Assembly (NCBI GenBank): GCA_964487845.1
Contig: CAZASK010000009.1
Coordinates: 5 to 64,004 of the forward strand
Reading direction: 5' to 3'
Source of the DNA: an uncultured bacterium
GTDB taxonomy: Bacteria; Chlamydiota; Chlamydiia; Chlamydiales; FEN-1388
DNA: 64,000 bases
In this document: in pieces, positions 36,279 to 48,653 of the stretch
Layout: every line of letters begins with the position of its first letter
Numbering within the stretch: the first letter of the stretch is position 1
Translations under genes and position numbers: made by a program
The notes under the pieces: generated by a model
Told to the model about the DNA's origin: nothing
Databases searched by the model: none
What the model saw: only the letters and a program-made list of their open reading frames with translations

Positions 36279-36367
36279 TTCATATTCCGGCTACCTTTAT
36301 TCGATATTATAGTCGATTAAATTTTGTATGACGCATTTTGACCTGCGAGCTTTCAAGAAATACTCAT

Positions 36368-36538
36368 TTAATTAGGCCAGAGGTACACCCAGTAAGCATT
36401 AAGGAGTTCTTGCTGCTCAATCGTCAAAGGGTCGAGTACAATATAGCTTTCATCATTGCGTGTGAAGGATGATTTGGACCAGTTGGCAGACCCGTTTACT
36501 AAAATTGGGTAGTTATAAACAGGTAGTGATGAAGAGGT
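36368..36538 (-). pseudogene. phospholipase D-family gene fragment (C-terminal ~56 codons only)
   Basis: The minus-strand frame reads TSSSLPVYNYPILVNGSANWSKSSFTRNDESYIVLDPLTIEQQELLNAYWVYLWPN*. GSANW..S...N.E is the tail of an HKD motif. An in-frame TGA lies immediately upstream and there is no start codon. Confidence 0.55.
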
Positions 36539-36588
36539 TCAAATTTATGAAAGTTTCGATATACTGACTGGAAAAACTAGGAAAGCTT

Positions 36589-37500
36589 ATGCAAGTTATA
36601 AGTCGTTTTGCTGTATTTGACCGAAGTGAATTCTTTCTCGCTAAAATTTCATCTGAGAAGCAATTTTATAACGAGTTTCATTTCAGAAGGCGCTACATAA
36701 GTGTATTGCAACAAGTTGCTAGCGAATGGTCCAAAACAAAACTATCCGAAGAAAAATGCTTTAAGATCAAATTTTCAGAGCCAAACTTCAATTTAAAGAA
36801 AATGAATGAGTCGTATTCTTCAGAGATAGTCGGTTATTTCACTGAACAAGGTCTTGAAGATAAACAAGTCTATGCAATAAACGGTTTAATTTATAACGCT
36901 GATCTTAGTTTCTACAATTCCAGTAAGCAATTAGATTTTGAAACAGGTGATGGTGAGATGATTGTAATGGACCGCTTAGGAAACATGTTTATCGCTCCTA
37001 AGGAACGAGGTATATTTCATCACTCATCGTTTTTTAGTGGAAAGCCTGTAGCTTTTGCTGCCTTATGTTTCATAAAGGATGGCAAAATCCAAGAACTGCT
37101 TAGATACAGTGGGCATTATTCGCCAAGTGAACAAGAAGAATGTGCCTTCACAAAACAATTGCAAACCAACTATCTTGTTGAAGAACGGGCTTATAGTGAT
37201 CTAAAAATTGATAGTACAGGTTGTTTAATACAAAGAATTTCCATCCTGTCCAAAGAAAAAGTTGAAGACTTATATAATGCTATTGCTGAATTAGGGGGAT
37301 TTTGCAGATCACGCTTGCACCTTATCAGTGGTGATAAGGTTGTTCCCTCTGCAAAGTTAGTAGATAAACAATTTGTTGATATGACAATAGCAGAATCTAA
37401 CTTAAAAAATCACTGTATAATTGATGCAGATGAATTCACCTACACTCCTTATCATAGGATATACCCTATTAGCAAATTTGAGTTGATCATTAACGATTAG
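36589..37500 (+). CDS. hypothetical protein (303 aa)
   Basis: Long ORF. Contains the conserved-looking block MDRLGNMFIAPKERGIFHHSSFFSGKPVAFAALCFIKDGKIQELLRYSGHYSP. I cannot assign a family. Confidence 0.5.
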   Translation: MQVISRFAVFDRSEFFLAKISSEKQFYNEFHFRRRYISVLQQVASEWSKTKLSEEKCFKIKFSEPNFNLKKMNESYSSEIVGYFTEQGLEDKQVYAINGLIYNADLSFYNSSKQLDFETGDGEMIVMDRLGNMFIAPKERGIFHHSSFFSGKPVAFAALCFIKDGKIQELLRYSGHYSPSEQEECAFTKQLQTNYLVEERAYSDLKIDSTGCLIQRISILSKEKVEDLYNAIAELGGFCRSRLHLISGDKVVPSAKLVDKQFVDMTIAESNLKNHCIIDADEFTYTPYHRIYPISKFELIIND

Positions 37501-37545
37501 TACATGAGAGAGCAGTAATTTTATATAAATATTGCTGACCCTCTA

Positions 37546-37593
37546 TTTTAACGCGGGTCTCCTATTAACCAAATAAATATTTGAGAAATTTTT
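37546..37593. repeat. 48-nt repeat, an inverted copy of 1..48
   Basis: 47/48 identical to the reverse complement of 1..48. Lies 46 nt after the stop of the 36589..37500 gene. Confidence 0.8.
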
Positions 37594-37869
37594 AGATAGA
37601 AAAACAACCTACGTTGAGAGTAAAAAGTTTGTGACTAACGAACAACTATAATCTCAATCAAAAACGGCATGAAGAGGACTCTTGCAATGGCAGCTAGATT
37701 GATTGGTCAGCCGATTACATGTTAATGCTGGACACATTGAAGGGCGCGCAGCGTGACGTTCACTTTCTTCCCGTCTACCGAATTTCATGGTATGAAAGGT
37801 GTAATTCTTGATATACACCTCCTTTTAATAGCGGCCAAAGGTCATTAAAAAAAACAGACAAGCTTGTTT

Positions 37870-38595
37870 ATGCTACAGTGGATATGTATTTTTTTATTTT
37901 ATGTCACAGCTTCTCTCTGTGCTCAAGATGCATGGGTGTCTTTCAAAAATGAGACTGTTTTAGAAATGAAGGCTATACCCGGGTGGTGTTCCTCAGAAAA
38001 GGCTCTCTTCATCATGGATATTATAAAAGAGAATAAATGCCAGTATTGCATTGAAGTTGGGGTTTTTTCAGGTATGTCCTTACTTCCTATAGCTAAAGCT
38101 CTACAATATAACGGATCAGGTACAGTTTTTGCTATTGATGCCTGGGATCCCTTTGAAGCGATAAAAGGTTTTAGTTCTTCTGACCCTAATTATATATGGT
38201 GGAGCCAGCTGGACTTTAACCATTTTTATGGACAAACTGTAGATTTAATTAATAAAAATAAACTAAATAATTTTTGTGACATCATAAAAAAGCCTTCACA
38301 TAATGCGGCATGTCTATTTATTGATGAAACCATAGATTTTATCCATTTGGATGGAAATCACAACGAAGAGTGTGCGTTTCAAGATGTAATTGACTACTTC
38401 CCCAAAGTGAAAGATGGCGGATATATTTTACTTAATGATCCAAACTGGTTAAGCATGAAGCGCTCTCTGGTTTTTCTTTTGGAGAGAGCTGAGCTGGTTT
38501 CTCTTTTTTCACCCTCCGCAACATATTTTCTTTTTCGTAAAAACAACCAGCGAGAAAAAAGTGCAAATATTTTATTTAAAAAATTAACTTCTTAA
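37870..38595 (+). CDS. class I SAM-dependent methyltransferase (Methyltransf_24-like) with an N-terminal signal/anchor
   Basis: MLQWICIFLFYVTASLCAQDAW N-terminus. CIEVGVFSGMS (motif I-like), AIDAW, IHLDGNH. Confidence 0.6.
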   Translation: MLQWICIFLFYVTASLCAQDAWVSFKNETVLEMKAIPGWCSSEKALFIMDIIKENKCQYCIEVGVFSGMSLLPIAKALQYNGSGTVFAIDAWDPFEAIKGFSSSDPNYIWWSQLDFNHFYGQTVDLINKNKLNNFCDIIKKPSHNAACLFIDETIDFIHLDGNHNEECAFQDVIDYFPKVKDGGYILLNDPNWLSMKRSLVFLLERAELVSLFSPSATYFLFRKNNQREKSANILFKKLTS

Positions 38596-47026: not shown

Positions 47027-47139
47027 GAGCTCTCCAGAGGTTAAAGCGTTGGATAGATGAAGATGATCAAGTCATATGATCACTACGTTGATACGTTATA
47101 AAAAATATTTTTAATATAAAAGGGTAAAGTGAATTGAAG

Positions 47140-47173
47140 CATGCGAGCAAGGCATGTATGCGAGCAAGTCATG
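47140..47173. repeat. tandem 17-mer x2 (ATGCGAGCAAG[G/T]CATGT)
   Basis: Read directly from the divergent intergenic region between the collagen-like gene and the 47254 gene. Confidence 0.7.
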
Positions 47174-47253
47174 TATATGTATATTTAGGTAGTCAAATAT
47201 TTTTTAATCAGGTATGAATTGATCGTAAGAGACGATTTTTTTAATGGGGCAGT

Positions 47254-47844
47254 ATGAGAAATATTTCACGTGTGTTTCTAGTTGGCTTATATCTTTTAAC
47301 TGGTGGCAATTTGCTTGCTAGACCTGATGTGGTGAATCTCAATCAATCAACCTGGTCCAATATGTCTAATATGACGTATAGGGGGAGTGTCGAAGAGAAT
47401 TTGAGTCATATTCCTGATTCACTGTGCTACACTCCAAAGTTGTGTTTTGAAGAACATGTGTCATCAAAAGAAATAGAGGGCTTTGAAAGGGTGCGTGGGG
47501 AGTGGAAATATAAAATAATAGAATTTTTCCCAGGAGGGGGCAGTTTTACTTTCCGTATCTATCTGAGTGCACCTAATGGAAAAACATACAGATCGCATGT
47601 TTTATCGACAGACTCTTTACCGACAGCTCCATATACGCTGGTAAAACTTAACAACCCGATGAAGGGAAATTATTTAGTGTTTATAAAAATTGAAAGTATT
47701 ACCTCTGCTGGTTCTATAGGTTTTTTAGCTGCAACATCGAATCATCGTAACCATAGCAGTTATATTGCCGTGAATGGTGTGAGCACAGATCCTCTTCTGG
47801 TTGGTAAAAAATTAATCATGAGTGGATTTACAATTCCTCGTTGA
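47254..47844 (+). CDS. secreted hypothetical protein (196 aa)
   Basis: Signal peptide MRNISRVFLVGLYLLTGGNLLA. No motif recognised. Confidence 0.45.
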   Translation: MRNISRVFLVGLYLLTGGNLLARPDVVNLNQSTWSNMSNMTYRGSVEENLSHIPDSLCYTPKLCFEEHVSSKEIEGFERVRGEWKYKIIEFFPGGGSFTFRIYLSAPNGKTYRSHVLSTDSLPTAPYTLVKLNNPMKGNYLVFIKIESITSAGSIGFLAATSNHRNHSSYIAVNGVSTDPLLVGKKLIMSGFTIPR

Positions 47845-48098
47845 TGAGTGTAGTCAGCATGTGGCATCAAACAAGTGCGTATGTGAGTTAAAAGTATTCC
47901 TGTCAATTCTTTGCTGCGAAAAGTTTCCCAAATAGTCTCATGATTGCTTTTGAGAGATAGTATTAGTATTGTTTTACTTTAAAAAACTAAATCGCTACAC
48001 AATGAATTTAAAAATGATTCTGGAATTGAAAAATAAAAAAAATGAGGGCATTCTCTGTCGCACGTTTTATATGTGAAGAAGTCATAATAGGAGTGTGT

Positions 48099-48578
48099 AT
48101 GATAGAGATGTCTTGCAGATTGTCAACAATCATTGATTGGAAAGAGTATGTTGGTGAAAAAGAGATTCTTGAATTATCCGGAATGGGTATTGATGATGAG
48201 CAAGTGAAAGAATTATCGAATGTGTTAAAAAACAACCAAACTGTTCGCTATATCGACTTGAGTAATAATAAAATTACGCTCAATGGGGTTGAGAGTATTG
48301 CTGAGGCTCTTCGGGTGAATAAGGCATTTCTTTCTAGACCTCTGTGGGATACTCATAGACTGAATTTGTATGGTAATCCTATCGGCAAACAAGGGTGTAT
48401 TACGCTTATTCAGTCTCTGTACGATACTGGGCGTTATTTACATTATGTCTATTTGGGGAAGAATGGTTTGACTTCGCAAGAGCAGTCTGAGTTGAATCAA
48501 AATAAAACAGTGCAAATGCTATCTGGCAAGACGAAAGAGTATCGAACGGTTCAGTCATCCTACTGGCATTGGAAATAA
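48099..48578 (+). CDS. RNI-like leucine-rich repeat protein
   Basis: ~28-residue LRRs of the ribonuclease-inhibitor/RanGAP type (LELSGMGIDDEQVKELSNVLKNNQTVRYIDLSNNKITLNGVESIAEALRVNK). TAGGAG precedes ATG 48099. Confidence 0.6.
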   Translation: MIEMSCRLSTIIDWKEYVGEKEILELSGMGIDDEQVKELSNVLKNNQTVRYIDLSNNKITLNGVESIAEALRVNKAFLSRPLWDTHRLNLYGNPIGKQGCITLIQSLYDTGRYLHYVYLGKNGLTSQEQSELNQNKTVQMLSGKTKEYRTVQSSYWHWK

Positions 48579-48653
48579 TGCATCATCACCTACGTTGACA
48601 AGGTGGAGCTCGCTGAAGTGTTTATATTTATTCACAGTAGACTTTAATTCAAG

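Follow-up and report, generated by a model that had tools for sequence, protein, structure and literature searches.

We investigated a 64-kb stretch of DNA (the window; 64,000 nucleotides) from an uncultured, Parachlamydiaceae-like member of the Chlamydiales, in which positions 36290-48600 hold 13 genes directly downstream of a tRNA-Thr and a tRNA-Tyr gene. The segment belongs to a variable, lineage-specific region, of which it is the part nearest the tRNAs; the region is a mosaic, domesticated one, not one foreign element. Sequence comparison with relatives identifies tRNA-Tyr as a genuine integration hotspot in this clade, and in our judgement the segment is probably an eroded, domesticated, mosaic occupant of that clade-wide hotspot in Parachlamydiaceae-like chlamydiae. 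An initial annotation of the window had described an accessory island between the two tRNAs and argR and had suggested an old integration hotspot or plasticity zone; the hotspot is borne out at the level of the locus through the integrases, attachment (att) repeats and variable content of the relatives.

Gene order around tRNA-Tyr and argR

The relatives' loci were recovered through TtcA, encoded shortly before the two tRNAs, and a metagenome scan with a TtcA alignment added 80 loci, so that 88 related loci were available in all. TtcA homologs across chlamydiae are 67-75% identical and are called TtcA by their source records. The best named homologs of both ArgR and TtcA come from Parachlamydiaceae and from Chlamydiales metagenome-assembled genomes (MAGs), and outside the species identity does not exceed 72-75%. 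The gene order LOG–YitT–tRNA-Val/Asp–(353 aa)–SurE–…–595 aa–AAA_5–TtcA–SEC-C–tRNA-Thr–tRNA-Tyr is collinear in L037, L038 (Protochlamydia phocaeensis), L039, L041 and L043. The SEC-C gene is also found between TtcA and tRNA-Thr in L037-L044, and TtcA, tRNA-Thr and tRNA-Tyr are adjacent in 53 of the 88 loci, most of the others being too short to judge. Because of this collinearity and adjacency, we consider the left side to be old, stable backbone.

Of the relatives, 24 have sequence for at least 2.5 kb past tRNA-Tyr, and in every one of them synteny stops at its 3' end, with at least 10 kb leftward collinear; in the window, accessory content begins 10 bp after the end of the tRNA (36279). An all-vs-all protein comparison of these 24 relatives revealed nearly nothing in common among them past tRNA-Tyr. 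The 13 genes of the window are likewise absent there, the exception being one 82-aa PnuC-like protein of 29% identity. The comparison with related genomes that the initial annotation had proposed thus found a kept left flank and different content past tRNA-Tyr in 24 of 24 relatives, and the same gene order was not conserved across them.

The initial annotation also had the backbone resume at argR, and this did not hold. The genes argR-glnH-glnP-glnQ (48705-51403) are kept as a four-gene cassette in 25-35 relatives, but clustering of the neighbouring open reading frames (ORFs) at 35 argR loci yielded no flanking family common to at least four loci, and at none of these 35 loci is argR accompanied by a tRNA-Thr or tRNA-Tyr within 10 kb. 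In one MAG, the source of both L004 and L037, argR and TtcA are ~148 kb apart on one contig. Since only the cassette is conserved, with flanks unconserved in 35 of 35 relatives and non-syntenic genes to its right, argR is not a backbone boundary. Rightward, MIOX, a major facilitator superfamily (MFS) transporter with a thiamine pyrophosphate (TPP) riboswitch, a tRNA-Asn islet, a second MFS transporter, an ATP-grasp/GT92 pair, an orphan and a GH3 hydrolase all lack syntenic counterparts. The sole exception is a 535-aa protein at 62267-63874, without a Pfam family, which is 72% identical to the product of an L041 gene (4924-6525). That homolog lies 2.3 kb past tRNA-Tyr in the opposite relative orientation, and it makes the 535-aa gene the only window gene seen near the variable side of tRNA-Tyr in a relative. 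The gene may be what is left of the ancestral right flank, or it may record an inversion. The non-syntenic stretch probably continues beyond 48.6 kb and, judged from this one relative, may reach ~62 kb.

Within the species, a sibling strain (L130) is 99.6% identical to the window in the backbone and 94-98% identical in the island. The 303-aa orphan is ~97% identical in the sibling strains L130 and L131, and members of at least 90% identity were found in other samples for this orphan, the methyltransferase, the kinase, the ROK-ankyrin protein (ROK-Ank), the 196-aa orphan and the leucine-rich repeat (LRR) protein. Since sibling strains carry the region, the island is fixed in the species. Two further contigs of different sample accessions (L132 and L133) both start at window position 46359 and end at 48629-48634, ~55 bp past the LRR gene. 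Their last bases diverge from the window, which could reflect structural variation at a point ahead of argR, or a second assembly of one data set. L133 also lacks 212 nt in the collagen G-x-y repeat region (window 46684-46895), by repeat-length variation or assembly collapse.

Integrative elements at tRNA-Tyr in relatives

We then considered what occupies the locus in the 38 informative relatives' loci, that is, those with at least 0.9 kb past tRNA-Tyr. At six of them (L037, L039, L053, L054, L067 and L074) a PF00589 tyrosine integrase is the first gene, 260-400 bp past the tRNA; the six integrases are 44-74% identical to one another and their orientation is constant. Exact direct repeats of 52-66 nt of the 3' part of tRNA-Tyr are present at four loci, where they bound 1.3-9.2 kb. 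In L037, positions 31-83 of tRNA-Tyr recur exactly (53 nt) at a distance of 9.24 kb downstream, and the integrase, a DUF3987 protein and fragments of a helicase are encoded between the two copies. The other three bounded segments have no integrase and hold toxin-antitoxin genes, an HNH nuclease and similar genes: an exact 66-nt copy bounds 4.3 kb in L043, a 55-nt copy bounds 2.5 kb with a PIN toxin in L050, and a 52-nt copy bounds 1.3 kb with a Gp49 + HTH_37 toxin-antitoxin pair in L065. A Toprim/AAA_25 primase-helicase is common to L067, L087 and L062, and fragments of an IS3-type transposase occur at the locus in P. phocaeensis (L038). Counting integrases, att pairs, primases and insertion sequences (ISs), marks of mobile elements are present in ~12 of the 38 loci, about one third.

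The relatives' repeats begin at tRNA-Tyr position 30/31, and an att site running from the anticodon loop to the 3' end is the classical layout described for islands in tRNA genes (tDNA islands) (PMC4383910). The repeats show that in the relatives tRNA-Tyr from position 30/31 to its 3' end serves as the attachment site of integrative elements. Taken together, the conserved flank, the differing occupants and the recurring mobile marks show that tRNA-Tyr is a real integration hotspot in the clade. A search of the literature library found no paper combining chlamydiae, integrative elements and tRNA-Tyr. Other first or early genes at the locus include a NUDIX hydrolase, the first gene past tRNA-Tyr in L041, L045 and L062, and a 650-aa MACPF-domain protein (E 1e-22) ~1.0-3.0 kb past tRNA-Tyr in L091.

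To our knowledge, gene acquisition in obligate intracellular chlamydiae is poorly documented, and mobile DNA is little known in them outside the island Pam100G, plasmids and the tet(C) island. Pam100G is a 100-kb island at tandem tRNA-Gly genes of Protochlamydia amoebophila UWE25, with 17-bp flanking direct repeats, a composition that is G+C-rich in part, an F-like tra operon, eight transposases, phage-related genes and 75% of its genes co-oriented (PMC548262). It resembles the window region in being a tRNA-associated, mosaic accessory region of the Parachlamydiaceae with traces of transposases. The window region, in contrast, measures at least 12 kb, lies at tRNA-Tyr, has no repeats or transfer genes, is slightly low in GC and has mixed gene orientation.

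Two better-known systems offer a further comparison. The Islander catalogue collects tyrosine-integrase islands in tRNA and tmRNA genes (PMC4383910). Like such islands, the window region starts at a tRNA 3' end, its relatives have a tRNA-adjacent integrase and a displaced 52-66-nt tRNA fragment, and different content occupies the same locus in related genomes (24 of 24). Unlike them, the window segment lacks both integrase and displaced tRNA fragment, so the Islander method could not call it; rather than an island that can be mapped, it is a remnant or mosaic. The asn tDNAs of Klebsiella and pheV of E. coli are described as tRNA hotspots of variable occupancy (PMC4891358, PMC11537424). There, too, one conserved tRNA locus holds different or decayed islands in different genomes, but those cases are within-species ones with intact integrases. 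The chlamydial hotspot spans genera or families in an obligate intracellular phylum and is seen mostly in MAG and metagenome contigs.

One conserved chromosomal address offers a natural series of decay states, from an integrase element that is intact and has perfect att sites, through integrase-less att-bounded toxin-antitoxin islets and primase-only remnants, to the eroded mosaic of the window. The order TtcA–SEC-C–tRNA-Thr–tRNA-Tyr is also a practical anchor when chlamydial MAGs are searched for effector and envelope genes specific to a strain, and candidate integrase/att pairs could aid genetic tools for environmental chlamydiae.

Origin of the segment at 36290-48600

The initial annotation had noted an orphan ORF followed by a repeat. 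In the 363-bp gap after this ORF, the repeat is very likely the truncated IS end at 37550-37653. The sibling L131 matches the window at 97.8% identity as far as 37653, where it goes on into a transposase gene and a matching inverted end; its full IS, with a DDE_Tnp_1 transposase, measures ~1.0 kb (about 1826-2846). In L130, which is 97.2% identical over 35725-39312, the IS is truncated as in the window. The first ~48 nt of the window (1-48) are an inverted copy of the IS end at 37546-37593 and are probably the end of another copy of this IS at the contig edge, which suggests that the IS is multi-copy in the genome. The description as eroded fits the window, which lacks an integrase and an att repeat and retains a truncated IS only.

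In the relatives, as their loci indicate, the attP of an element recombines site-specifically with tRNA-Tyr from about position 30 to the 3' end, and integration regenerates tRNA-Tyr and leaves a displaced 52-66-nt copy at the far end. In the window, such an element would then have decayed, with loss of integrase, distal att copy and replication genes; IS activity and recombination would have reshuffled its content, and useful cargo would have been retained along with translocated native genes.

The composition of the segment is in keeping with an old mosaic. Per-gene GC is 0.393 in the island and 0.413 outside it, and GC3 is 0.333 and 0.364, respectively (both p ~0.02). Among all 12.3-kb sliding segments of the window, the island has the lowest GC (0.385) and nearly the highest dinucleotide distance (delta* 53; mean 29, range 16-55). 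However, the likelihood of its synonymous codon choices under the window's own codon usage is not different (p 0.3). Only the right two thirds exceed the local delta* null, and removal of the collagen gene changes little. The compositional check proposed by the initial annotation gave a mixed picture, with GC lowest and delta* near the top but codon usage native and the deviation mild and uneven. Composition that is mildly atypical and heterogeneous fits old mosaic DNA and is unlike a recent single import. A similar split applies to the long intergenic regions and alternating strands that had been described: the median gap is indeed 136 bp, against 18 bp to the left and 35 bp to the right, but strand switches (6 of 12 junctions) are not unusual beside those on the left (13 of 30) and right (5 of 11).

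Several observations weigh against a past integration as the source of these genes. The 21-nt 3' end of tRNA-Tyr was not found again in the window with up to 3 mismatches allowed, and the 27.7 kb downstream of the tRNA hold no exact match of at least 10 nt to its last 45 nt. A blastn-short search with the tRNA-Tyr genes of the 24 relatives returned chance matches only, and a Smith-Waterman search for a tRNA-Tyr repeat was also at chance level, 91 of 100 shuffles scoring at least as high as the real sequence. The att-like repeat that the initial annotation had proposed to look for near 48600 is therefore missing by exact, mismatch-tolerant and Smith-Waterman searches. The window holds no integrase or integrase remnant either, the best tblastn match with the relatives' integrases having E 0.33. 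The compositional signal is weak and uneven, with delta* values of 40, 62 and 81 for the three thirds of the island against a local null of 39±12. SnoaL, TetR and ROK-Ank are chlamydia-wide families that lie within ~8 kb of each other in L128 in another context, and part of the content may be native DNA moved by rearrangement. The tie between these 13 genes and a past integration is one that we infer, and with core proteins only ~70-75% identical, even the closest genomes from other species are too distant to time events.

Other searches in the window gave a similar picture. When all proteins past the relatives' tRNA-Tyr were used in tblastn, nothing was matched in 36290-48600 except the 75-aa PnuC-like protein, and no primase remnant was found. 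The only repeats detected in a search for island-flanking ones were those of the collagen gene and short matches at chance level, and megablast of the whole island against the PLSDB plasmids gave no match. An inverted tRNA-Tyr-like fragment at 37679-37696 was rejected as chance.

The chlamydia-wide families deserve closer description. Parachlamydiaceae, Simkaniaceae and other Chlamydiota MAGs encode full-length ROK-Ank homologs 39-51% identical to the window protein, and proteins with the N-domain only are found as well. Elsewhere the ROK-Ank gene stands between housekeeping genes (L125-L127), once within BamD…PBP and once within HtrA…RseP. In L128, two ROK-Ank genes in tandem are separated by 6 kb from divergent SnoaL and TetR genes, with 51% (SnoaL) and 60% (TetR) identity to those of the window. 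SnoaL homologs of 51-56% identity are found in L128 and L007, in the latter 1.7 kb upstream of argR. Because these families are chlamydia-wide and occur elsewhere, part of the island may well be native chlamydial accessory DNA that moved. The single coherent island of the initial annotation is not supported: ROK-Ank and SnoaL/TetR are found together elsewhere, and composition differs between the thirds of the segment.

These points bring forward an alternative in which the tRNA-Tyr edge is an ordinary rearrangement breakpoint in a fluid genome, where native accessory genes arrived by inversion, translocation and local turnover and the relatives' hotspot is irrelevant. Such a breakpoint would account for a window without att repeat or integrase, for native codon usage, and for SnoaL/TetR and ROK-Ank families that sit amid housekeeping genes or beside each other in other genomes; the unconserved flanks of the argR cassette in 35 of 35 relatives indicate low synteny generally, and the 535-aa gene, inverted relative to its L041 homolog, is compatible with an inversion. 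Yet in every relative synteny is lost at one and the same point, the 3' end of tRNA-Tyr, with at least 10 kb to its left remaining collinear, and at that very place mobile-element traces (integrases, att duplications, primases or ISs) are present in about one third of the 38 informative loci. The island also has the window's lowest GC with delta* near the top, and it contains an IS remnant and a pseudogene. We therefore consider a simple breakpoint unlikely and favour an eroded occupant of the hotspot.

The plasticity zone of the Chlamydiaceae is a hypervariable region near the replication terminus that holds PLD-family, MACPF and cytotoxin genes and is not known to be defined by tRNA-Tyr. The suggestion that the window segment is its counterpart takes up the PLD-family remnant that abuts tRNA-Tyr, the MACPF gene ~1 kb past tRNA-Tyr in L091 and the hypervariability of the region, and both regions are enriched in host-interaction genes. 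However, GC skew is positive over 36-53 kb, with no terminus-like switch at the island; its sign changes only at ~54-56 kb and 62-64 kb, in a 64-kb window that is too short to place the terminus. The PLD sequence is a fragment of 56 codons, MACPF, cytotoxin, trp and guaAB-add genes were not among the Pfam results for the window, and the anchoring genes differ. A plasticity zone in the Chlamydiaceae sense, to which only the PLD remnant links the segment, is thus very improbable. Least credible of all is a single island, acquired fairly recently by horizontal transfer from a non-chlamydial source and extending from tRNA-Tyr to argR, since the tRNA-adjacent position, the lower per-gene GC (0.393 against 0.413, p 0.02), the orphans and the eukaryote-like domains that would suit it are met by the lack of any integrase, att repeat, transfer gene or plasmid match by megablast, by native codon usage and composition that is heterogeneous along the segment, by ROK-Ank, SnoaL and TetR being closest to other chlamydiae (47-60% identity), and by argR not being a backbone boundary.

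Genes of the region and its neighbourhood

All 13 genes and the PLD remnant listed in the initial annotation were recovered from the ORF list and by Pfam (Table 1), and its statement that no integrase is present was confirmed, Pfam yielding no integrase or transposase ORF in addition to the tblastn result above. Hydrophobic, signal-like N-termini, judged by eye, are present in 6 of the 13 island proteins. No toxin-antitoxin genes were found in 36290-48600.

Table 1. Features of the window from TtcA to ArgR, with positions in the window, strand and supporting evidence.
Feature	Position	Strand	Evidence and remarks
TtcA-family PP-loop protein	34976-35734	-	Pfam ATP_bind_3; final large gene of the conserved left backbone; comparison anchor
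SEC-C motif protein	35726-36082	+	Pfam SEC-C; last backbone gene ahead of the tRNAs
tRNA-Thr(tgt)	36105-36177	+	ARAGORN and Rfam
tRNA-Tyr(gta)	36196-36279	+	ARAGORN and Rfam
PLD/HKD-family C-terminal remnant, ~56 codons, pseudogene	36371-36538	-	PLDc_2 E 1e-4
303-aa orphan	36589-37500	+	No Pfam, no PDB match
Truncated left IS end (terminal inverted repeat + ~80 bp), DDE_Tnp_1 type	37550-37653		Collinear with the L131 IS; strand not assigned
Class I methyltransferase, signal-like N-terminus	37864-38595	+	Methyltransf_24 E 4.6e-18
Polysaccharide pyruvyl transferase, signal-like or anchor-like N-terminus	38600-39454	+	PS_pyruv_trans E 3e-15
P-loop kinase, AAA_28 family (NadR ribosylnicotinamide-kinase-like)	39603-40172	+	AAA_28 E 5.5e-14
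75-aa half-size PnuC-like membrane protein	40231-40458	+	NMN_transporter E 1e-8, profile positions 113-175 of 175 only
SnoaL_2-fold protein, divergent from TetR gene	40484-40849	-	Pfam
TetR-family regulator	40987-41622	+	TetR_N
WD40 beta-propeller, eukaryote-like, CDC20-like	41665-43047	-	WD40_CDC20-Fz E 3.4e-18 (below gathering score) and other WD40 propeller models
Pmp-like right-handed beta-helix protein, signal-like N-terminus	43273-44787	+	Beta_helix E 5e-21, Chlam_PMP E 2.6e-8
ROK-like sugar-kinase fold + ankyrin repeats	44924-46159	+	Ank_2 E 3.6e-30; N-domain by AlphaFold/Foldseek
Collagen-like (G-x-y repeat) protein, signal-like N-terminus, 170-aa C-terminal domain	46184-47026	-	Collagen E 1e-6
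196-aa orphan, hydrophobic signal-like N-terminus	47254-47844	+	No Pfam match
Leucine-rich repeat protein, RNI/LRR_6 type	48042-48578	+	LRR_6 E 1.8e-7
ArgR	48705-49163	+	Pfam; first gene of argR-glnH-glnP-glnQ, 48705-51403

The PLD gene fragment that had been reported stood up to analysis by its PLDc_2 match and upstream stop codons. Its minus-strand translation, '...NGSANWSKSSFTRNDE...WPN*', carries GSANWSKSSFTRNDE, and PLDc_2 covers profile positions 92-118 of 132. Read as '...NGSANWSKSSFTRNDESYIVLDPL...WPN*', the sequence at 36371-36538 is a C-terminal piece of an HKD/PLD domain. Since stop codons lie just upstream and the profile is covered only in part, the piece is taken to be a pseudogene remnant.

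A predicted envelope and surface set comprises the methyltransferase and pyruvyl transferase, the Pmp-like protein, the collagen-like protein and the secreted orphan, and the WD40, ROK-ankyrin and LRR proteins, with their eukaryote-like repeats, are candidate host-interaction proteins. No autotransporter barrel was detected in the Pmp-like protein. The collagen-like gene has internal repeats of 9/18/27 nt, and its product matched BclA (1wck) weakly in a PDB sequence search (E 0.77). Pfam and PDB sequence searches gave nothing significant for the 303-aa orphan, the 196-aa orphan or the C-terminal domain of the collagen-like protein.

The label of a ROK-ankyrin fusion was upheld at the level of fold by AlphaFold and Foldseek, the Pfam sequence search giving it no support: the N-domain alone has no Pfam match even at E 10. 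An AlphaFold model built on 28 homologs reached pLDDT 91.5, and Foldseek matched the N-domain to NagK, polyphosphate glucomannokinase, NanK and ROK glucokinase (E 5e-12 to 1e-8, TMt 0.45-0.65), with NagK (7p7i) at E 5e-12 and 1woq at TMt 0.65. The motif 'DLGGGGLKT' is conserved in the family. By the predicted structure, the N-domain would thus have a ROK-like sugar-kinase fold.

The half-size PnuC gene lies 59 bp downstream of the AAA_28 gene, and we predict that the two products form a small salvage pair of the nicotinamide-riboside type. A search of 1.84 billion representative proteins with the half-size PnuC gave 661 clusters at E<=1e-3. Most of the best 150 of these 661 clusters are 67-110 aa long and align end to end, and a few proteins of 170-210 aa match twice. 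A truncated gene was rejected as an explanation of the 75-aa protein because most of those best 150 clusters are of similar size and aligned over their full length. By its length and by analogy, the protein looks like a member of a widespread half-size, three-helix PnuC family with SemiSWEET-like logic.

The window region itself is an ordinary, known kind of feature, a decayed tDNA island at a hotspot, and in this respect our results are mostly confirmation. The comparative by-products are of more interest, namely the integrase/primase element family, the att-bounded toxin-antitoxin mini-islets and the widespread half-size PnuC family. Quite tentatively, we advance one joint proposal: the 3' half of tRNA-Tyr would be a phylum-scale site for undescribed small chlamydial integrative elements (~9 kb; tyrosine integrase plus a Toprim/AAA_25 or DUF3987 primase-helicase) that decay to att-flanked mini-islets of 1.3-4.3 kb with toxin-antitoxin genes only, the window island would be the fully domesticated end state of a route that supplied effector-type and envelope genes to environmental chlamydiae, and the AAA_28 kinase with the 75-aa half-PnuC would make up a two-gene module for nicotinamide-riboside salvage, not recognised before, in which the transporter is a SemiSWEET-like half-size one.

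To the left of the tRNAs, the division into housekeeping genes before and accessory genes after was right for the left 11 kb, which is conserved backbone, but accessory genes are also found further left. A 1018-aa ankyrin-repeat protein is encoded at 14929-17985 and matches the models of the Legionella Dot/Icm effectors AnkY, AnkG and AnkX in part and below threshold; since it lies in the backbone part, eukaryote-like proteins extend outside the island. An APH-type kinase is also among the accessory genes left of the conserved backbone, and a bacterial small signal recognition particle RNA (Rfam RF00169, 48 bits) is located at 19589-19688 between the APH-type kinase and AsnB-like genes.

To the right of argR, part of the sequence is also accessory-looking, with MIOX (myo-inositol oxygenase, E 1e-98) at 51439-52341 and a TupA-like ATP-grasp gene adjoining a GT92 glycosyltransferase at 56720-58533. 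The TPP riboswitch (Rfam RF00059, 68 bits) at 52378-52488 is directly upstream of an MFS metabolite/H+ symporter gene (52546-53787), which suggests that the symporter is a thiamine-related transporter. A tRNA-Asn at 53856-53929 is followed by a toxin-antitoxin islet with a 57-nt direct repeat, 88% identical, at 53925-53981 and 54770-54826. Both of its genes are on the minus strand: an HI1420-type antidote at 54014-54316 (PF21716, E 2e-14) and a Gp49/HigB-like toxin at 54303-54644 (PF05973, E 1.5e-3). This cargo is of the same kind as that of the att-bounded tRNA-Tyr islets of L065 and L043.

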